Below, piece by piece: positions 25,780 to 35,456 of a stretch of 64,000 bases of DNA (its first letter is position 1; every line of letters begins with the position of its first letter). Both the position numbers and the translations under genes were made by a program. The notes beneath the pieces are model-generated. The model searched no databases. It worked only from the letters and a program-made list of their open reading frames with translations, and was not told the DNA's origin. The DNA comes from Candidatus Poribacteria bacterium (GTDB lineage Bacteria; Poribacteria; WGA-4E; WGA-3G). The stretch lies in NCBI GenBank assembly GCA_022821725.1, contig JAJEDB010000018.1, forward strand, positions 30,467-94,466. The letters are read 5' to 3'.

Positions 25780-26865
25780 CTAAATCTCCGGCACTCTCAC
25801 CGCAACCTCTTTCCCCACGGCATGCGATCGGAAAATACCGTCCATAATCACATTCGTGAGGAGGACACCCTCCGGCGGTATCGGCGAGGGTGCGTCCGCT
25901 TTGACGGCTTCACGGAAGGCTATCATTTGTGCTGCCCAGTTATCTTCCTCTGGGAATCCTGAGAACCGGATCGTCGTCATGCCTTCCGGCGGATTCGGTT
26001 CTCCTGTTAATCCCTCTGATTCCACAAACTTCTTGAGATCCCCCGCATACGCATCGGCGTAGATAACCGGTCCACTCAACGAGAACCCCGCCTTCGTCCC
26101 AAGATGGAAGTTGCCACCGAGTGAATCCTGATGCACTGCCCAAGAGATTTTGAACACCATCACACCGCCGTTTTCAAACCGCACCCACGCCGCACCGAAC
26201 TCTTCAACGTCCATGATACCCCGGAACCTCGGATCTTGCTGTGAGATATAATCCTCAGTAATAGCGGAAACCCGCACAGGTTTCGGATACCCCATCGCAT
26301 ACAGTGAAGCGTGCATGTTATAGACACCGATATCGACGGTCGCACCCGCACCCGCGGTTTTTTTGTAGATGAACGTATGTCCAGGGTTCCCGCGTCGCCT
26401 GCACCCCGCAGATTCGGAATAGTAGATGTCCCCGAATAATCCCGCATCGAACGCCTTTCTGAGGAATTGGAGTCTCGGACTAAACGTCGGATTGAGACCG
26501 ATCTGTAATATCTTGCCTGATGCCTTTGCTGCGCGGGTCATCGCCGTCGCATCGGGAAGCGTCGCTGCCATCGGTTTTTCACAGAGGACGTGTTTCCCGG
26601 CGTTCAGTGCCGCGACTGTCGGTCGTCGGTGCCCCTGATTGTAAGTGCAGACGCTCACCGCGTCGAGGTCGTCCATTTCGAGCATCTTGTTGTAACTTGA
26701 AAACGCGTTCTTTTTCGGGACACCCCACTCTTCAGCAGCTTGGTTCGCCTTACTTTTGATAATGTCGCACACCGCGACGATTTCAAAACCACCGACTTTC
26801 TCATAAGTGCTCTGGTGGGCACGTGAAATGCCACCTGTGCCAATAATACCGACTCGGACCGTCAT
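25780..26865 (-). CDS. Gfo/Idh/MocA family oxidoreductase (paralog 1)
   Basis: MTVRVGIIGTGGISRAH (Rossmann fold), EKPMA. ATG 26865 with GGAG upstream gives 361 aa, the same length as the neighbouring paralog. Confidence 0.9.
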   Translation of the reverse strand: MTVRVGIIGTGGISRAHQSTYEKVGGFEIVAVCDIIKSKANQAAEEWGVPKKNAFSSYNKMLEMDDLDAVSVCTYNQGHRRPTVAALNAGKHVLCEKPMAATLPDATAMTRAAKASGKILQIGLNPTFSPRLQFLRKAFDAGLFGDIYYSESAGCRRRGNPGHTFIYKKTAGAGATVDIGVYNMHASLYAMGYPKPVRVSAITEDYISQQDPRFRGIMDVEEFGAAWVRFENGGVMVFKISWAVHQDSLGGNFHLGTKAGFSLSGPVIYADAYAGDLKKFVESEGLTGEPNPPEGMTTIRFSGFPEEDNWAAQMIAFREAVKADAPSPIPPEGVLLTNVIMDGIFRSHAVGKEVAVRVPEI

Positions 26866-26902
26866 AGTGTTCTCTCCTTCTAACAAATTCACCGAATTAA
26901 AC

Positions 26903-27988
26903 TTAAAGCGCCGGCACGCGCACCGCGACCTCTTTCCCCGATTCCTGTGATCGGAAGATACCGTCCATAATTACGTTTGTAAGGAGGACACCCTCCGGCG
27001 GTATCGGCGACGGGGCATCCGCTAAGACGGCTTCTCGGAACGCGGTTATCTGTGCCTCCCAGACATCGACCTCTGGAAATCCTGAGAATTGGATCGTCGT
27101 CATCCCTTCTGGTGGGTTCGGTGCTGCCGTCAATCCTTCCGATGCCACCAGTTTCTTGAGATCATCTGTATACGCATCGGCATAGACAGCCGGTCCATCC
27201 AACGAGATACCCATTTCTTTACCGAGACAGAAGCTCGGACCGAGCGAATCCTGATGAATCGCCCAAGAGATTTTGAACACCATCACGCTCCCATCTTCAA
27301 ACCTGATCCATGCCACACCGAACTCTTCGACATCCATGATACCCCGGAATTGCGGATCCTGCTGTGAGATGTAATCCTCGGTAATGGCGGAAACTCTCAC
27401 CGGTTTCGGGTACCCCATCGCATACAGTGAATTGTGCATGTTATAGACACCGATGTCTACAATCGCACCCGCCCCTGCTGTCTTTTTATAGATGAACGTG
27501 CGTCCCGGATTCCCGCGGCGTCTGCCCCCCGAGGACTCGGAATAGTAGATATCCCCGAGCAATCCTTCATCGATGACCTTCTTAGCGAATTGGAGTCTCG
27601 GATTGAATGTGCTATGGAGACCGATCTGCAAAATTTTGCCCGACGCTTTCGCTGCACGGGTCATCGCGGTCGCATCAGGAAGGTTTGCCGCCATCGGTTT
27701 TTCACAGAAAACGTGTTTGCCAGCGTTCAGTGCCGCAACCGTTGGACGGCGATGTCCTTGGTTATAGGTACAAACACTCACGGTATCGATCTCATCCATT
27801 TCGAGCATCTTATTGTAGCTGGAGAAGACGTGTTTTCTGGGAACACCCCACTGATCGGCTTTTTCGTTCGCTTTACTTTTGATGATGTCGCACACCGCGA
27901 CGATCTCAAAACCGCCCACTCTCTCGTAGGCTCTCTGATGTGCCCGTGAAATACCGCCTGTGCCAACAATACCGACTCGGATAGTCAT
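26903..27988 (-). CDS. Gfo/Idh/MocA family oxidoreductase (paralog 2)
   Basis: MTIRVGIVGTGGISRAH. Colinear with and highly similar to 25780..26865 along its whole length. Confidence 0.9.
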   Translation of the reverse strand: MTIRVGIVGTGGISRAHQRAYERVGGFEIVAVCDIIKSKANEKADQWGVPRKHVFSSYNKMLEMDEIDTVSVCTYNQGHRRPTVAALNAGKHVFCEKPMAANLPDATAMTRAAKASGKILQIGLHSTFNPRLQFAKKVIDEGLLGDIYYSESSGGRRRGNPGRTFIYKKTAGAGAIVDIGVYNMHNSLYAMGYPKPVRVSAITEDYISQQDPQFRGIMDVEEFGVAWIRFEDGSVMVFKISWAIHQDSLGPSFCLGKEMGISLDGPAVYADAYTDDLKKLVASEGLTAAPNPPEGMTTIQFSGFPEVDVWEAQITAFREAVLADAPSPIPPEGVLLTNVIMDGIFRSQESGKEVAVRVPAL

Positions 27989-28145
27989 ATTCTGTTCTCC
28001 TCGTAATCAGGATTGAATTGCTAAATGAGTTTAGACGAAATCGGTTTGCAATGCAAGCGAAAAATGTGATATACTTCAGGGACATACGAACAATGGGATT
28101 TTGATGGTTTGGTGTTAAGCCCTGTCAAAGAAGGAGATTTTGAAA

Positions 28146-28883
28146 ATGAGGCATCAAGACGAGTGGACCGATGCACAGTGGCACCAAATGGCACAGGCAC
28201 ACGAACTTCAGCGACAGCGACTTCTACAGACCCCCGCACTCCACACCGCTGTCGGGATGTCCTCAGGGACATTCTTTGCCATCTGCGAACTTATCAAAGC
28301 CAGTCACGAAGAACCCGAACACTACGAAACGAACCTGCCTTACTTTTTTTGCCACGGCGACATCGCAACAGATATCCACACGTATCGCCAGCAATACCCA
28401 CATCTTTTTCAAAGTGTGGGGTATGGCGGTGGCGGTTTGATCAAACCGGGGATGACTCGGTGGCAACTTTCTTGGTGTGGGCGGTCTTTTTTTAAGGAAT
28501 ATCCCTATCAGATAGATATTTCTTGGGTTGACGAGAAACTACAAACCCATCTCGATTGTACATGGGATGCATGGATTCAGGGTGTCCCGATGTATATTTT
28601 CGGAACGCTCACCTGCGAGGTCGAAACATACAACACCTTAACGGCAACCTCGTGTTTTATCTATGGTGTGGAAGAAAATCCGCACGAGGCATTTGATCTT
28701 GACGCACACGAAATACCGACAGGACCGAATTTTCAGTTGAAGACAGGGGAGATCGTTGAGGACGGAAAAGAGTATCCCGTCAACTTCAATATAGAGGGTG
28801 ACGCGGGGTTCTATGAGCCGTACAGCGAGATTGATATTATAGACGGATTCATGGGATTGGACGGCACGATCCACAGCCGATAG
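28146..28883 (+). CDS. Hypothetical protein
   Basis: 245-aa ORF with coding-like composition. ATG 28146 lies 9 nt after AGGAG. I recognise no motif. Confidence 0.5.
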   Translation: MRHQDEWTDAQWHQMAQAHELQRQRLLQTPALHTAVGMSSGTFFAICELIKASHEEPEHYETNLPYFFCHGDIATDIHTYRQQYPHLFQSVGYGGGGLIKPGMTRWQLSWCGRSFFKEYPYQIDISWVDEKLQTHLDCTWDAWIQGVPMYIFGTLTCEVETYNTLTATSCFIYGVEENPHEAFDLDAHEIPTGPNFQLKTGEIVEDGKEYPVNFNIEGDAGFYEPYSEIDIIDGFMGLDGTIHSR

Positions 28884-29117: not shown

Positions 29118-29147
29118 TTGACATGTATTTGTATGTTGTGATATACT
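29118..29147 (+). promoter_or_regulatory. Sigma70-like promoter TTGACA-N18-TATACT upstream of dndC
   Basis: Read directly, 72 nt upstream of ATG 29219. Confidence 0.4.
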
Positions 29148-29218: not shown

Positions 29219-30622
29219 ATGGCAGAGACACCCTACAGTATCTTCGACTCACGCACCCCAGACGATATCCATCGCGAAATTCAAGAAGTCTACCTTGAAA
29301 ACGCGCGCCCTTGGGTTATCGGATACAGCGGTGGAAAAGATTCAACGACGGCCCTTCAGCTTATCTGGTATGCCCTCGCTGAACTTCCGCCAGAAAAACG
29401 AAAATACCCAGTCTACGTGATTTCATCCGATACCCTTGTTGAAACGCCGGTAATTGTTAGTTACATTACTGGGACCTTAGACCAAATTGAAGCGAAAGCA
29501 CGCGAAGAAAAAATGCCGTTTCAGACAGACATCGTCCGTCCTAAAGTTGATGATACCTTTTGGGTTAATCTCATTGGCAGGGGTTATCCTGCCCCCTACA
29601 CTCGCTTCAGGTGGTGCACTGACAGGATGAAAATCCGACCAGCGAATCAATTTATCTTAGATAGGGTTGCTGAACACGGTGAAGTTATTATGGTTCTCGG
29701 AGTTCGGAAAGGTGAAAGCACAACGCGTGATCAAGTTCTAAGTTTGCACCGCATGAAAAATTCACTCCTTTCACGACATACGACACTGCCGAATGCTTTT
29801 GTTTATACGCCTGTAGTCGATTTTACTACAGATGATGTCTGGATGTACCTGTTATCCGCAGCATCGCCATGGGGTGGTGATAATAAGCAATTGCTAACGC
29901 TCTACCGCAACACGAACGCACAAGGTGAATGTCCACTTGTCGTTGATGAAACGACGCCTTCTTGTGGAAATAGTCGCTTTGGATGTTGGACCTGCACTGT
30001 CGTCACAAAAGACAAGGCGATGGAGGGACTTATTGATAACGGGGAGGACTGGATGATACCGCTGCTTGAGTTCCGAGATTTTCTCGCGAAAACCCAAAAT
30101 CCTGAGAAGAAACCTGAAATTCGAGAACATCGGCGACGGAACGGACAGATTACGATCCTCAACAATAAACTTGTCCACGGTCCCTATAAACTGGATTTTT
30201 GCAAGGAACTTTTAAGAAGGCTTCTCACGACCCAACAGCAAGTTCGAGAAGCGGGGCCTGACTCGAATATCAAACTCATTACGGATGATGAACTTGAGGA
30301 AATCCGTAAAATCTGGCGAACTGAACGTCAAGATTGGGAAGATGCTGTCCCACAGATTTACGCAGAGATTATTGAAGACCGCGACTGGATCGTTGATGAT
30401 GCTACTTCTTTTACAGAGAAGGATAAAGATATCTTGGCAGCGGTCTGCAGCGAAAAGGGGATCCCTGTCACCCTTGTGGCAAAATTACTCGATACAGAAC
30501 GACAAATGGATGGGATGAGTCGGCGTGCGGGGATACAGTCCCGAATTGACGAAATCTTCCATGAAGACTGGCGTTCAGAACAAGAAGTTCGCTCCGGGCT
30601 GGATAACCCTAATCAACAATGA
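29219..30622 (+). CDS. dndC: DNA phosphorothioation protein DndC (PAPS-reductase-like PP-loop ATPase)
   Basis: WVIGYSGGKDSTTALQLIW (PP-loop SGGKDS), RFRWCTDRMKIRP, VLGVRKGES and SCGNSRFGCWTCTVV (Cys cluster) are all characteristic of DndC. Confidence 0.9.
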   Translation: MAETPYSIFDSRTPDDIHREIQEVYLENARPWVIGYSGGKDSTTALQLIWYALAELPPEKRKYPVYVISSDTLVETPVIVSYITGTLDQIEAKAREEKMPFQTDIVRPKVDDTFWVNLIGRGYPAPYTRFRWCTDRMKIRPANQFILDRVAEHGEVIMVLGVRKGESTTRDQVLSLHRMKNSLLSRHTTLPNAFVYTPVVDFTTDDVWMYLLSAASPWGGDNKQLLTLYRNTNAQGECPLVVDETTPSCGNSRFGCWTCTVVTKDKAMEGLIDNGEDWMIPLLEFRDFLAKTQNPEKKPEIREHRRRNGQITILNNKLVHGPYKLDFCKELLRRLLTTQQQVREAGPDSNIKLITDDELEEIRKIWRTERQDWEDAVPQIYAEIIEDRDWIVDDATSFTEKDKDILAAVCSEKGIPVTLVAKLLDTERQMDGMSRRAGIQSRIDEIFHEDWRSEQEVRSGLDNPNQQ

Positions 30623-30771
30623 TTCTCCACAAACTCACCCTTAACAATGTAGGCTTGTTTCGTGACACACAAACTATCCACCTCACACCGATGCAAAATC
30701 CATTAGTAGCAACTTGGGTTAAAGACTATTCTCTGAATCTGTTTTCGCGGTGCCATGCTAATGCTGCCTGA
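30619..30771 (+). pseudogene. dndD: dndD 5' stub (about 25 native codons, then unrelated sequence)
   Basis: ATGA overlap with the dndC stop. MILHKLTLNNVGLFRDTQTIHLTP resembles the DndD/SMC-like ATPase N-terminus, but it is never followed by the Walker A. Homology ends near 30690-30700, where the 27-nt repeat and the convergent HNH gene begin. Confidence 0.6.
30695..30721 (-). repeat. 27-nt sequence, inverted partner of 9456-9482
   Basis: The reverse complement is TAACCCAAGTTGCTACTAATGGATTTT. It lies immediately 3' of the HNH gene stop, at the dndD break point. Confidence 0.85.
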
Positions 30772-31679
30772 GCTGGATAATGTTCTTTGTTCTCTGGTAC
30801 CAGAATTTTCTTATCCTTCAGTGTCCTAAACTTCCATTCTGAAGGTCCCTTTTCCACCATCAAATCAGAAACTATTATTTTGTAGGTATTCGTAAAAGAG
30901 ATCAACCCTCTGTCAAATCCCCAATGATGGAATTGGCACAGCGAAATTCCATTTCGGACATCGTTATTTCCTGAAATGTTGAATGGAATGATGTGGGCCG
31001 CTTCAGCTACACTTTCGCCATCCAGTGTTAGAACATACGATTGACAAACTGCGCAAGTGTAATCGTAAATTCGCATGATTGCTTGGCGGAAACCTGCTGT
31101 CCGAATTGGATTGTCCGTTTCTGTGAGTGCCAAGGGTTGTAGAGATGAAAATGTTTGTTTGACTTGCTGCAGCAGGGTCTGTCTGTACTCATCAATCTGC
31201 TGTTCTTCAGCTATAAGACTTTCGATATCTGCTTTGAAATCTATGAAATAGGTATCTATAAGGGTTTGGCGGATTACCTCTCGATCATGGGTATTAGTAA
31301 GTAGGAGGAAAAGTTCATCGTCAAAACTGGCATACGCAACAATTTCGCGAAGCCGAGAAACCGTTTTTATTTGCGTGGTAACCCTTAATGCTGTTTCGTA
31401 TCCAGCGTTCGAATGGTGATGCCAGAATCCTTCACTTTTCAAATGGAAAAACGGTAAGGCAAGATTAGGTCTGCGGTCGGTCAATATTGACCAATATTTC
31501 ATAAAAATTTCAAACAAGTTCGGAGAAGGCAGGATTTTATTTTCGAGAATTTGTCCTTGCTCAATCAATTCAATGAGTGCTAATAAAAGGATAGGTTTAT
31601 TAGGAGCTGCACCGTGTGCTCTGTCTACACGCAAGTTTCTGAACTTATTCACATATTTGAGCAGAATATTGCTGACCAT
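30726..31679 (-). CDS. HNH_2-type endonuclease with ~200-aa N-terminal putative DNA/modification-reading domain
   Basis: C-terminus: FRQAIMRIYDYTCAVCQ..AEAAHIIPF..NGISLCQFHHWGFDRGLI. N-terminus: KFRNLRVDRAHGAAPNKPILLLALIELIEQGQ. I use ATG 31679; the ORF-track start at 31748 is TTG and overlaps the upstream gene. Confidence 0.8.
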   Translation of the reverse strand: MVSNILLKYVNKFRNLRVDRAHGAAPNKPILLLALIELIEQGQILENKILPSPNLFEIFMKYWSILTDRRPNLALPFFHLKSEGFWHHHSNAGYETALRVTTQIKTVSRLREIVAYASFDDELFLLLTNTHDREVIRQTLIDTYFIDFKADIESLIAEEQQIDEYRQTLLQQVKQTFSSLQPLALTETDNPIRTAGFRQAIMRIYDYTCAVCQSYVLTLDGESVAEAAHIIPFNISGNNDVRNGISLCQFHHWGFDRGLISFTNTYKIIVSDLMVEKGPSEWKFRTLKDKKILVPENKEHYPAQAALAWHRENRFRE

Positions 31680-31707
31680 GTTTTTAGTGATACTATGGAA
31701 ATATAGG

Positions 31708-32982
31708 TTACAACACTTTTTTGGGCAATTCAACCTTTTCCGTTTCAATGCCTATTGCCTTGGCATAATCCTCACGTAATTTATCTGCATCTTTTTGAAA
31801 ATGATTTAACATATAGAGTTGCAAATTTTTAACGAGCGTTTTACCTTTTATTAACATCTTTTTTTGTGTAGGATGCCAGATGACCCCATGATAAGGCGTT
31901 TGAGTCAGATCTGTAGGTAATTTTGAAATCATCCTGAAACACGTGGATAATGGATACTTCAGCACGAGTTCCGCGATGATTTCTGTTAGGATTTTCAATC
32001 CTATGGGACGGAAAAGGATACTACCGCCCTCTGGATGTCTATACTTCTTGACAATTGTTGAATTGTCAGACATGTTGACGAATTCTTGTAGTGGTAAAAA
32101 ACTCTCTGTAAGTCGCTTAAAATAATCACAAGCATTTTGGTAATGTTCGTCAAGAATGTGATCCGGTTGACGCACTTTTGTGAGTTCATCTTTTCTATCT
32201 GCAAGTCCTTTTTTATTTGATATGACGTATGTTCTCGTAAATAATATTTTCAACAAATCATAGAGATTTCCGATCGTGGTAAGGCAAGTTTGGTTACCCT
32301 GTGGGACATTATCAGTTACATTGTTTAAGATTCGATTCTCCATAAACATTGGATTTTCCGTAACCAGTCTCCGGGCAGTAATGGCCATTGTATCATCTTC
32401 ATCAAGAGCGATTGTCTCTCCTTTGGAAACCCGGACAGCGTTTTTGTTCAATGTTGTGAAAAGTCTTCGGGTTCTTTCCATTCCGTCCGGATCAGTCCTA
32501 TGAGCAATAAAGATTATTGACAACTCATCTTCACCCAAGTGAGGTGCTTCTGCCACTGCTTCTTTAATTCCTATGAGACGGTGTTGTCCATCCAGTGTGA
32601 ATAGTTTTTCTTCACCATTCAAACTAAGAATTCCGATTCCAGCAACCACATCTTCCGGAAATTCTTCACTATCCAATTGATTATTACCCTCTATTCGAGT
32701 AATCTCATGCCAGTTGGGATCGCCTTGATAGACTGCTACAATCAGTGAATTGAAAAAGCGTTGTTCCTGTTTGAGAAGATAGTCTTTTATTTCTTCACCG
32801 CGATTTTCTTTTATTTCTCGCTGGACCATTTCACTCAAGGTTTTACTTTGGTAAATCTCTTCAGCAATCTTGACCCTTTCAGCGATGTCTTTAAGTTTCA
32901 TGAGCGTAGGGTAATATACCCAATCACCCATGATGCCTCTTAGCGACGGAAGATATAATTTTTTCATATCTTGATATACCAT
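31708..32982 (-). CDS. DGQHR-domain protein (DndB/ParB-like family)
   Basis: Literal motif KLFTLDGQHRLIGIKEA. N-terminus SLRGIMGDWVYYPTLMKLKDIAERV is DndB-like. ATG 32982 has AGGAG 5 nt upstream. Confidence 0.85.
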   Translation of the reverse strand: MVYQDMKKLYLPSLRGIMGDWVYYPTLMKLKDIAERVKIAEEIYQSKTLSEMVQREIKENRGEEIKDYLLKQEQRFFNSLIVAVYQGDPNWHEITRIEGNNQLDSEEFPEDVVAGIGILSLNGEEKLFTLDGQHRLIGIKEAVAEAPHLGEDELSIIFIAHRTDPDGMERTRRLFTTLNKNAVRVSKGETIALDEDDTMAITARRLVTENPMFMENRILNNVTDNVPQGNQTCLTTIGNLYDLLKILFTRTYVISNKKGLADRKDELTKVRQPDHILDEHYQNACDYFKRLTESFLPLQEFVNMSDNSTIVKKYRHPEGGSILFRPIGLKILTEIIAELVLKYPLSTCFRMISKLPTDLTQTPYHGVIWHPTQKKMLIKGKTLVKNLQLYMLNHFQKDADKLREDYAKAIGIETEKVELPKKVL

Positions 32983-33010
32983 AACATCTCCTGGCACGGT
33001 TTAAGAGGTA

Positions 33011-33039
33011 AGTTTAACACATTCCACAAAAAAAGTCAA
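33011..33039 (-). promoter_or_regulatory. Sigma70-like promoter TTGACT-N17-TAAACT for the DGQHR-HNH pair
   Basis: Read on the minus strand, about 30 nt upstream of the DGQHR start. Confidence 0.45.
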
Positions 33040-33177
33040 ATTTTCGCCTGATTCTTTCAAAATATAGACCCATAAGACATAATCCAAATCATGTTGAGGT
33101 GAACCCTGACGAAAACAACCGCCCAGCGAGATTGATACGAGACTTCACCAAAACTATTGAACACACCAAAGATACCG

Positions 33178-33230: not shown

Positions 33231-33268
33231 GAATATTTACATACCCAGAAGAAAAGTCAATTTTTTGT

Positions 33269-33297
33269 TTGACAAATTTCTGAAAAAAATGTAAAAT
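33269..33297 (+). promoter_or_regulatory. Near-consensus sigma70 promoter TTGACA-N17-TAAAAT
   Basis: Read directly. No credible ORF follows for about 500 nt. Confidence 0.55.
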
Positions 33298-33303
33298 AAA
33301 CAT

Positions 33304-33812: not shown

Positions 33813-34646
33813 ATGAGATTTTTTATGATTGTTGCTGGCGTGCTATGTGCCGCGACCCTCGCACTCTGGACACCCACAGCCGATGCTGTTCCGAAAGTAG
33901 ATATCTTCATCTACACGGAGATAACGCAGTGGATCGGCCAAGGACAGGCACAAGAACAAGCCGATATATTCATTAAAGAAGTCGATGGCCAAAGAGGTAT
34001 CGGCAAGGTTGTCAATGAGAACGCCAAAGCCATTGAAAAGTGGACGAAGGATCACACCGAGGAAAAAGGCTATCACCTTATTAGCCTCTACGGCGATTTT
34101 CCACCTGAAATCTATGGACAGGGCAATAAAGATGAAGATGGTTCCGTTGCTGAAGAATTCTTGGATGCCGGGAATACCTTCTCAAACAGTGCCGACTATT
34201 TCTTCTGGGGCTTAGCCGGAAGAAACCGTGAAGGTGGACTCCAAAACATGATGGACATTCCAGGTATCGTCCAATGGGATGATGACACAGCAATGAAGGT
34301 CACAAAGGAAGGGAAAGAGTTCACACCGACCCTGAAGGATTATGCCACCGATCGTCCGTTCCACGTGGATCAGCTCGAAAAAACCGATTGGGAAGTGGAG
34401 ATCGCATTTGCGACGGAAACAGGGAAATCCAAGGGGATGAACCGGTGTGACCCTTGCATCATCCGGAATACGAAAACAGACGCACGTCTCATTCAGGTCT
34501 ATCAGACGAATGGCCAAGACGATCCGAAGGGTAAAGTCCTCGCGGAAATTATCCTAAACTATTATCTTGAAGTCATTGGGGCACTCGATGTCGATCCCCA
34601 AGAAAAACTCCCCACATTGTGGGCGGATCTCAAATCCAGGAGGTAA
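33813..34646 (+). CDS. Secreted protein of unknown function (paralog A)
   Basis: Signal peptide MRFFMIVAGVLCAATLALWTPTADA. Blocks shared with paralog B: LYGDFPPEIY, ADYFFWGLAGRNREGGLQNMMDI, WDDDT.MKVT and DRPFH.DQL. GGAGG lies before the ATG. Confidence 0.7.
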   Translation: MRFFMIVAGVLCAATLALWTPTADAVPKVDIFIYTEITQWIGQGQAQEQADIFIKEVDGQRGIGKVVNENAKAIEKWTKDHTEEKGYHLISLYGDFPPEIYGQGNKDEDGSVAEEFLDAGNTFSNSADYFFWGLAGRNREGGLQNMMDIPGIVQWDDDTAMKVTKEGKEFTPTLKDYATDRPFHVDQLEKTDWEVEIAFATETGKSKGMNRCDPCIIRNTKTDARLIQVYQTNGQDDPKGKVLAEIILNYYLEVIGALDVDPQEKLPTLWADLKSRR

Positions 34647-34652
34647 AATTTA

Positions 34653-35456
34653 ATGCGAAATATTTTTCTTTCACTCACCCTGATTGCGTTAATGGCACTC
34701 CCTTTAACGCCCGTACTTGCCGCCGGTGAAGTTGCTATCTATACCGGAATCACGCAATGGATTGGTAAGGCTGAAGCTGATGAACAGGCAGAGATTTGTG
34801 TCGGTATGCTCGAAGATGCGGATATCGCTGTCACGTGGTATGATAGCGATGGCCAAGCCGACGACTTAGCCGCTTGGATGGAAAGTACTACCGGCGACGA
34901 TGGCTTGGATGTCTGTGTCCTCTACGGTGATTTCCCTCCCGAAATCTACCCGGAAGGCAATTCACAGACCGACGGCTCTATCGCTGAAACCTTCATCGAA
35001 ACTACCGATGGCGACGTTTTTATCAACCACGCCGATTATATGTTCTGGGGGTTGTCGGGTAGAAACAGAGAAGGCGGTCTTCAGAACATGATGGATATCG
35101 ACGGCATTGTGATGTGGGACGATGATACACCTATGAAAGTCACGGCAGAAGGCAGTGCCATTTCCCCAAGTCTAACCGACTATGCATCCGACCGTCCGTT
35201 CCACACCGATCAACTCGATGGCGATTGGGAAATTGAAGTTTCTCTCGCACAAAACGACGACGGCACCCGTGCCGATCCGATTATTGTTCGCGATGGCAAC
35301 CTCGGTAGGTTAATTCCAACGATACAGACGAATGGTGGCGATGAACCGAAAGGTGCAATTGCTGCTGAAATTATCGTCTGGCTGATGTCCACAACACCGG
35401 TTGAACCTGCGGGTAAACTCTCCACCACGTGGGGAGATCTGAAAGCAGTTCGATAA
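34653..35456 (+). CDS. Secreted protein of unknown function (paralog B)
   Basis: Signal peptide MRNIFLSLTLIALMALPLTPVLA. It has the same conserved blocks as 33813..34646, and GGAGG lies before the ATG. Confidence 0.7.
   Translation: MRNIFLSLTLIALMALPLTPVLAAGEVAIYTGITQWIGKAEADEQAEICVGMLEDADIAVTWYDSDGQADDLAAWMESTTGDDGLDVCVLYGDFPPEIYPEGNSQTDGSIAETFIETTDGDVFINHADYMFWGLSGRNREGGLQNMMDIDGIVMWDDDTPMKVTAEGSAISPSLTDYASDRPFHTDQLDGDWEIEVSLAQNDDGTRADPIIVRDGNLGRLIPTIQTNGGDEPKGAIAAEIIVWLMSTTPVEPAGKLSTTWGDLKAVR

Follow-up and report, generated by a model that had tools for sequence, protein, structure and literature searches.

Restriction endonucleases that join a sulfur-binding domain (SBD) to an HNH nuclease and depend on phosphorothioate (PT) modification of DNA have already been characterised biochemically [PMC7461809, PMC6224610, PMC10602919]. 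EcoWI, SprMcrA and further members of this SBD-HNH class cut PT-DNA, and in vivo they restrict dnd+ plasmids [PMC7461809, PMC6224610]. Clusters of dnd genes lie near fewer than 3.6% of the genes of this type, and these outliers have been suggested to reflect non-functional dnd clusters [PMC7461809]. A survey recorded wHTH(SBD)+SAD+HNH genes in the dnd loci of 698 taxa and proposed that they act as restriction partners [PMC10853773]. Here we describe a locus of Candidatus Poribacteria in which an SBD-HNH gene and a DGQHR-domain gene stand beside the remnants of a dnd operon. The locus lies in a stretch of 64,000 nucleotides (nt) of contig JAJEDB010000018.1 (assembly GCA_022821725.1), referred to below as the window; all negative results reported for the window apply to these 64 kb. 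The original prediction had regarded the two genes (30695-33039) as a candidate undescribed defence pair. We consider it probable that the locus is instead a decayed island of PT writer genes, now occupied by a PT reader-cutter, namely an SBD-HNH endonuclease (EcoWI/SprMcrA class) that stands alone; a novel two-gene system is not supported. L-numbers denote related loci retrieved for comparison, with 27 genome loci fetched with the DGQHR family.

The SBD-HNH gene (30726..31679, minus strand) encodes a predicted PT-dependent restriction endonuclease of 317 residues, as judged from the NCBIfam model NF045808, the HNH_2 domain and its homologues. Its start is ATG 31679; an alternative open reading frame (ORF) of 340 residues, beginning at TTG 31748, extends into the upstream gene and uses a start not used by the homologues, which are 317-318 residues long. 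The N-terminal part, which the original prediction had called unassigned while guessing correctly that it reads a modification, is an already described SBD of ~170 residues followed by a helical linker of ~40 residues. The SBD (residues ~1-168; 31176..31679, minus strand) was recognised by phmmer and Foldseek matches to PDB 8h0l, the SBD of Hga. The phmmer match (E=5e-21) covers residues 29-168 of the 340-residue ORF, equal to 6-145 of the 317-residue protein. The AlphaFold model is confident in the N-terminal domain only, and a Foldseek search of the PDB with it returned 8h0l (E=1e-8, template modelling (TM) score 0.76), then the SBDs of SprMcrA and ScoMcrA and nothing else significant. NF045808, 'phosphorothioated DNA-binding restriction endonuclease', matches the protein with 131 bits (E=4.6e-38) over model positions 7-284 of 284. 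Pfam detects HNH_2 alone in the protein itself (E<=0.01), and precomputed Pfam assignments on its homologues give PF26340 (DNA-SBD_ScoMcrA) together with PF13391; there are 1268 homologues, the closest named ones being from Candidatus Poribacteria. The sulfur pocket of Hga consists of H25, K26, L75, P76 and H79 [PMC10602919], which align with N27, K28, L75, P76 and H79 of the window protein. Hence, to judge by these comparisons, the N-domain is the known sulfur-binding domain, predicted to read Rp-phosphorothioate.

The nuclease core (HNH_2, PF13391, E=3e-11) spans residues 209-262 (30894..31055, minus strand). All three predicted motifs, CAVCQ, AAHIIPF and NGISLCQFHHWGFD, are present, and the family-invariant residues C209, C212, H229, N243, C248, H251, H252 and D256 are all kept. 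The gene is under purifying selection, with a ratio of non-synonymous to synonymous substitution rates (dN/dS) of 0.12-0.33. The window protein is thus a new, divergent SBD-HNH member, with an N-domain and an enzyme class that have already been described. Tandem SBD-HNH paralogues that are 50-57% identical occur in five related loci (L001:10001-12034, L011:3242-5164, L015:9672-11605, L016:11283-13309 and L032:2027-4127), and the first pocket dyad varies among them (NK, HQ, HK, YK), which suggests that they may have diversified in PT-context specificity. In the metagenome-assembled genome (MAG) of another member of the Poribacteria, the SBD-HNH gene is split by an insertion of ~1.1 kb encoding a zinc-ribbon transposase (IS1595-like; L014:11567-12712).

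The claim of a broken dnd operon beside these genes holds. An intact dndC (29219..30622, plus strand), an orphaned PT sulfurtransferase gene encoding 467 residues, runs convergently with the HNH gene. Its product scores 572 bits with TIGR03183 and 651 bits with PRK06850, both over cutoff, and is 86-87% identical to DndC of complete Poribacteria dnd loci; the C-terminal 50 residues match Pfam Sp-DndD, and they belong to DndC itself, not to a fragment of dndD. The gene has a good promoter (TTGACA-N18-TATACT at 29118-29147), and its dN is ~1.6 times that of its relatives at equal dS, weak evidence that constraint on it may be relaxed. Next to it, only the first 24 codons of dndD are left (30619..30690, plus strand; tblastn, 83% identity to residues 1-24 of Poribacteria DndD), and in the DNA alignment dndD homology stops at ~30690. 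Neither DndE nor any further part of DndD was detectable by tblastn in the 64 kb, and no cysteine desulfurase (dndA) was found in the window. The complete Dnd set (DndA/IscS and DndCDE) is therefore absent from the window. PADLOC matched only its generic DndB, DndC and HNH models there and no named system, and tblastn searches of the window for remnants of GIY-YIG, PIN, p602, DUF3644, a second HNH, SNF2 and ParB_N yielded nothing except the dndD stub.

In relatives this slot occurs in alternative states. The syntenic slot lies between two paralogous genes of 267/277 residues and tandem GFO_IDH_MocA genes. At seven loci it holds a gene with a weak GIY-YIG signature followed by the DGQHR gene, facing DndE<-DndD<-DndC, and SBD-HNH is present in none of the seven. 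Such loci often also encode a 'DNA phosphorothioation system restriction enzyme' helicase (TIGR04095, 563 bits), a second DndD-like ATPase and dnd_assoc_4. At ~23 further loci the slot holds one or two SBD-HNH genes, with the GIY-like and DGQHR genes upstream in some only, and none has a complete dndCDE; the complete-chromosome Poribacteria MAGs OZ251998, OX639973, OX639992 and OZ242354 are in this HNH state. In an uncorrected Fisher test made before four further loci were added, seven writer-only, no combined and 19 HNH-only loci gave ~1.5e-6. Four loci are intermediates with truncated writers that arose independently: the window (with an intact dndC, a dndD that breaks off at codon 24, and no dndE), L037 (DndC, a DndD stub of 33 codons and SBD-HNH in this order, all on one strand), L007 (DndC and DndD with a DndE stub of 23 codons) and L036 (no DndE detected, the contig stopping within DndD). 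On a tree of the DGQHR protein the slot states interleave and all outgroups are writer-type; therefore the switch occurred repeatedly, or alleles were exchanged by recombination. One ENA contig of 10.96 Mb, ctg522474l, carries the slot twice, with HNH alone at 5.6 Mb (L004) and dndC-dndD plus HNH at 0.2 Mb (L007), which points to an assembly chimera of two strains or to a large duplication.

The DGQHR gene (31708..32982, minus strand) lies upstream of the nuclease gene across a spacer of 28 nt (31680..31707, minus strand, read from the sequence), a spacing also seen in L001, L009 and L024. It encodes a DndB-like protein of the ParB/Srx superfamily with 424 residues from the likely start ATG 32982, in an ORF that extends over 31708-32997 (minus strand); the ancestral start is ATG 32967. 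The description of this gene as DGQHR/DndB-like stood in part. The motif FTLDGQHRLIGIKEA is present, with DGQHR at residues 131-135 and D131, Q133, H134 and R135 invariant, and the protein matches Pfam DndB (PF14072, E=2e-34, 119.4 against a cutoff of 29.1) and TIGR03187 (119.6 bits against 58.85). With the DndB equivalog model TIGR03233, however, it scores 73.8 bits, far under the cutoff of 328, and only the N-terminal 205 residues align. It matched no PDB sequence at E<=1, and AlphaFold2, supplied only with homologues at least 73% identical, gave an unusable model (mean predicted local distance difference test score (pLDDT) 42).

Identity with DndB itself was rejected on the score, on gene orientation and on co-occurrence both with classical dndB and with ssp clusters. 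In the window and in all complete Poribacteria loci the DGQHR gene is convergent to dndC, not upstream and co-directional. In 27 loci it is almost always preceded, often with overlap, by the GIY-YIG-like gene, which encodes 166-176 residues. This two-gene module is convergent to dndCDE in Poribacteria, Erwinia persicina and Pseudomonas, and two of the Erwinia/Pseudomonas loci additionally have a classical dndB upstream of dndC. The module of a Planctomycetota MAG (L028) follows dndC-dndD in the same direction, and no DndE was detected there. It directly follows sspABCD in two MAGs (L033, L034) and on the Roseobacter litoralis plasmid pROLI83, and on a Rhizobium Ti plasmid it precedes genes read as DndFGH-like from their size and an FtsK translocase annotation. 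Hence, the DGQHR family appears, from its gene neighbourhoods, to be a general accessory of PT systems and not DndB proper. Representative modules are L001:8204-9972, L033:6763-8540, L115:8459-10239 (Roseobacter pROLI83) and L116:8483-10242 (Rhizobium pTiK1/93); where the module follows sspABCD, it stands in the place expected for SspE. We found nothing in the literature on a GIY-YIG plus DGQHR module.

The window has lost the GIY-YIG-like gene. When it is aligned with L001 and L009, it shows a clean deletion of ~500 nt spanning the gene of 167 residues, of which only codons 1-5 (MVYQD; 32968..32982, minus strand) remain, in frame with the DGQHR start; tblastn found no further remnant of it in the window. 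The promoter-like sequence TTGACT-N17-TAAACT with a TG-extended -10 (33011..33039, minus strand), identified by its consensus match and its conservation, would thus be the ancestral promoter of the GIY-like/DGQHR module, because the clean in-frame deletion removed the GIY-like gene between. The bare consensus is unremarkable (14 promoter-like sites in the sequence against 8.1 +/- 2.7 in shuffles). Over 252 nt, however, the promoter block shares 90% identity with the stretch that precedes the homologous operon in L001, and it is conserved with L009 too.

From these observations we propose the following mechanism. The N-terminal SBD would dock the Rp sulfur of PT-DNA in the hydrophobic pocket formed by N27, K28, L75, P76 and H79, and the C-terminal HNH_2 domain, probably as a dimer, would cut nearby. 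The enzyme could thereby restrict incoming DNA from PT-modifying hosts, as a type IV / IIM enzyme does. It would be tolerable only in a host without PT at the same sites, which fits the disabled writer of the window (dndD cut at codon 24, dndE and dndA absent). The DGQHR protein would be the resident DndB-like ParB-fold protein of the island, possibly co-transcribed with the nuclease from the old promoter of its module; it may at most regulate this promoter and would be neither the sensor of the nuclease nor its obligate partner. On the simplest reading, the DGQHR gene is the constant arm of PT islands, and the SBD-HNH gene is shuffled cargo that lands at the junction of writer and accessory genes. 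Co-transcription of the two would then be a by-product, or at most a regulatory link.

Several observations weigh against this assignment. The NF045808 score of 131 bits lies under the cutoff of 180 bits, in a model of the 'exception' type built from close relatives of the characterised enzymes. The usually conserved pocket histidine is an asparagine (N27), a family-wide change (N in 100 and H in 19 of 120 homologues). In ScoMcrA the beta-methylene of the equivalent histidine contacts the sulfur [PMC6224610], and Asn27, which retains a beta-methylene, may be compatible with this contact. Outside the Poribacteria, relatives that are 30-40% identical adjoin apparently complete dndCDE (L047, L053, L066, L068, L109), which means that writer and reader are not incompatible everywhere; some SBD-HNH proteins may be built into PT systems as their effectors [PMC10853773]. 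The rest of the genome, of which 64 kb were covered, may hold another dnd or ssp cluster. Lastly, purifying selection acts on the DGQHR gene in genomes without dndCDE in the slot, and the gene lies next to the HNH gene in the same orientation in ~18 loci, with L042 as a lineage of reverse order; the two genes may therefore have a functional link of some kind.

One such link would be a true two-component system, in which the ParB-fold NTPase would gate or load the PT-reading nuclease, the pair being a counterpart of GmrS/GmrD, SspE or DndI that is split and equipped with an SBD; we regard this as unlikely. It is equally doubtful that the DGQHR protein was co-opted as an NTP-dependent regulator or loader, the pair forming a two-component PT-sensing defence module that outlives its parental PT writer. 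In the window the genes are co-oriented and 28 nt apart behind a single promoter, as the original prediction had correctly read from the sequence, and a ParB-like NTPase together with an HNH nuclease is the architecture of the PT-sensing DndI and SspE [PMC11662687]. The DGQHR gene is directly upstream of the HNH gene in those ~18 Poribacteria loci, among them the two-gene cassettes L024 and L027, which lie in other neighbourhoods and have no GIY-like gene. It also keeps a dN/dS of 0.10-0.28 in loci without a local writer, equal to that in writer loci. To this extent the pair is conserved as neighbours, but each gene also occurs alone in the same slot. SBD-HNH stands without DGQHR in at least six Poribacteria loci (same-slot cases L004, L006, L118, L121), DGQHR stands without HNH in at least 11 loci, seven of them with dndCDE, and in an HNH-centred metagenome scan DGQHR was nearby in 3 of 79 loci and DndC in 25 of 79.

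The divergence of the two genes likewise argues against a system of two. Pairwise divergence of DGQHR is uncorrelated with that of the adjacent HNH (r=0.17, Mantel p=0.26) and correlated with that of its GIY-like partner (r=0.53, p=0.035), the constant neighbour that is deleted in the window. HNH genes have been swapped beside near-identical DGQHR genes: between L011 and L013, DGQHR differs by 8%, GIY by 2% and HNH by 42%. DGQHR is internally deleted or truncated in the HNH-bearing loci L032, L035, L036 and L071, and characterised SBD-HNH enzymes act alone [PMC7461809]. In addition, the proposed sensor-plus-nuclease gene pair finds its sensor and its nuclease in one polypeptide, and the DGQHR protein is therefore not needed as a sensor. 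L042, from an unrelated lineage, has HNH first and DGQHR 3 nt behind it, a reversed order that would count as an independent pairing. Its sibling L071 has HNH followed by an internally deleted DGQHR gene. In a further sibling of both, L040 (2610-7941), SspB-SspC is followed by SBD-HNH in the place expected for SspD, which looks like a further PT writer that the reader nuclease has interrupted. The adjacency in this lineage looks like a replacement of sspD and the GIY-like gene, the nuclease having apparently taken the place of the catalytic writer gene beside a leftover DGQHR, and not like a designed pair.

A stand-alone nuclease on a decayed writer island also accounts for the Poribacteria better than the view that SBD-HNH is the restriction arm of a PT system, with PT as the self mark, binding of PT by the SBD sparing the host, and the window a dying restriction-modification locus, a possibility to which we assign a low probability. 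SBD-HNH relatives are embedded in complete dndCDE clusters at 5-7 metagenomic loci, and exactly such a restriction role was proposed in the survey of dnd loci [PMC10853773]. However, no complete Poribacteria writer has SBD-HNH (0 of 7) and no HNH locus there has a complete writer (0 of ~23). A protective role of PT would mean that the nuclease turns toxic once the writer is lost, yet many writer-less loci keep an intact gene on which purifying selection acts, and all assayed SBD-HNH enzymes cut PT-DNA and do not spare it. A general rule that SBD-HNH never occurs with a complete writer was nevertheless rejected, as it is true in Poribacteria and fails in other metagenomic lineages. In four of these (L053:7392-8942, L047:7935-9422, L066:1920-3485, L109:7414-8945) an SBD-only ORF of ~190 residues lies directly upstream of a full SBD-HNH gene. 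The loci with this ORF adjoin apparently complete dndCDE and a second DndD-like gene, and reader and writer coexist there.

Very improbable, finally, is a minimal module in which intact dndC and SBD-HNH work together, HNH and SBD replacing DndD and DndE in nicking and targeting: compact DndC->SBD-HNH pairs without DndD/E occur in at least eight low-GC metagenomic contigs, with a cysteine desulfurase gene within ~2-3 kb in at least four and DndC conserved across saturated dS, and both the window and L037 retain dndC beside the HNH gene, with its good promoter in the window, but the window genes are convergent with a dndD stub between them, which points to deletion rather than design, dndC is absent from most Poribacteria HNH loci, DndC is frameshifted in two of the eight compact modules, and the window has no detected cysteine desulfurase and a raised dN in dndC. 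The compact operons, which lack DndD/E within 3-8 kb, are L057:1190-3552, L075:49-2446, L077:1306-3599 and L084:6516-8966, and also L074, L078, L086 and L090. In L057, L077, L084 and L090 a class-V aminotransferase (cysteine desulfurase), whole or as a fragment, is encoded within ~2-3 kb of the pair. Their DndC proteins are 59-83% identical between loci at saturated dS, which therefore indicates long-term constraint, with frameshifts in L074 and L090. The arrangement may represent either a minimal PT module or a relic that has arisen repeatedly, and we found nothing in the literature on a DndC plus SBD-HNH module.

The cassette stands out from its surroundings in composition, as had been noted by eye. 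The G+C content (GC) of 30695-33039 is 0.392, against 0.490 +/- 0.026 for windows of the same size across the 64 kb, the third lowest of 617. The origin of the cassette, whose HNH and DGQHR genes on the minus strand are convergent with dndC and the dndD stub on the plus strand, is accounted for better by replacement through recombination inside a syntenic hotspot than by insertion of a mobile element. An origin by mobile-element insertion was rejected; there is no integrase or transposase in the island, and a search for signs of insertion there found no tRNA, no Rfam match and no convincing flanking inverted or direct repeats. A terminator between the convergent dndC and HNH genes was sought and none was found.

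The island is flanked by tandem paralogues (25780-27988 and 33813-35456), two GFO_IDH_MocA oxidoreductases with 82% identity and two secreted-looking proteins of 267/277 residues, which are possible recombination anchors of the hotspot. Between the MocA genes and dndC lies an ORF of 247 residues (28140-28883, plus strand) with no Pfam, NCBIfam or PADLOC match and no homologue in the fetched loci, which is either variable cargo or not a gene. A second A-tract/TTGACT box (33245..33272, minus strand; AAAATTGACTTTT repeat), a candidate element, is a direct repeat of 33024-33051 with 79% identity. An element of ~50 nt at 33249-33302 is 82-95% conserved in seven related loci and includes a strong plus-strand promoter match (TTGACA-N17-TAAAAT, 11/12), ~515 nt upstream of the gene of 277 residues; no Rfam family matches the long leader before that gene.

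One chromosomal slot alternates between two contents, a PT-reading nuclease or a PT writer together with its restriction partners, and several independently truncated writers are caught mid-transition. This provides evidence from natural populations for the writer/reader incompatibility that was first shown experimentally with ScoMcrA, and a concrete case of the 'non-functional dnd cluster' invoked earlier for dnd-linked SBD-HNH genes. The variable pocket dyad (NK, HQ, HK, YK) and the tandem paralogues might give new PT sequence specificities for PT-mapping tools. The GIY-YIG-like plus DGQHR module that accompanies both Dnd and Ssp is widespread across several phyla, its function being uncharacterised.

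Among known systems, DndI, SspE and GmrSD combine a ParB-like DUF262 NTPase with a DUF1524 His-Me nuclease, and the window resembles them in having, in a modification-sensing context, an HNH-type nuclease together with a ParB-fold DGQ(H/Q)R protein; GmrS and GmrD may each have a gene of their own. However, the window has Pfam DndB and not DUF262, and HNH_2 and not DUF1524. The PT sensor of DndI and SspE is in the ParB-like domain, whereas the window nuclease has an SBD of its own, and the two window genes show no signal of co-evolution or obligate pairing. DndB (TIGR03233), the ATP-modulated dnd repressor, shares with the DGQHR protein the Pfam DndB match, the DGQHR motif, the ParB/Srx fold and the dnd locus. 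It differs in score (74 against 328 bits for the window protein) and in orientation, the DGQHR gene being convergent to dndCDE and not upstream. In relatives the DGQHR family is preceded by the small GIY-YIG-like gene, is accompanied in Erwinia/Pseudomonas by a classical dndB besides, and is also found after sspABCD, which has no DndB.

ScoMcrA, the SBD-SRA-HNH type IV enzyme of Streptomyces coelicolor, is similar in its SBD fold (Foldseek matches to 5zmn, 5zmo and 5zmm), its HNH nuclease and its incompatibility with a resident dnd writer, which is predicted for the window protein. In contrast, the window protein has neither the SRA domain that reads 5-methylcytosine nor the N-terminal head domain, is ~300 residues shorter and is only 16-18% identical. 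From the SBD-HNH enzymes EcoWI, SprMcrA and Ksp11411I (type IV / IIM), the window protein differs in its score under the NCBIfam cutoff, in the change of the pocket histidine to asparagine, in its closest solved SBD, which is that of Hga, a PD-(D/E)XK and not an HNH enzyme, and in its origin from an uncultured phylum of sponge symbionts. It is like them in its length of ~320 residues, in its N-terminal SBD with the K/L-P/H pocket and its C-terminal HNH_2 domain, and in lacking both an SRA domain and an adjacent active writer.

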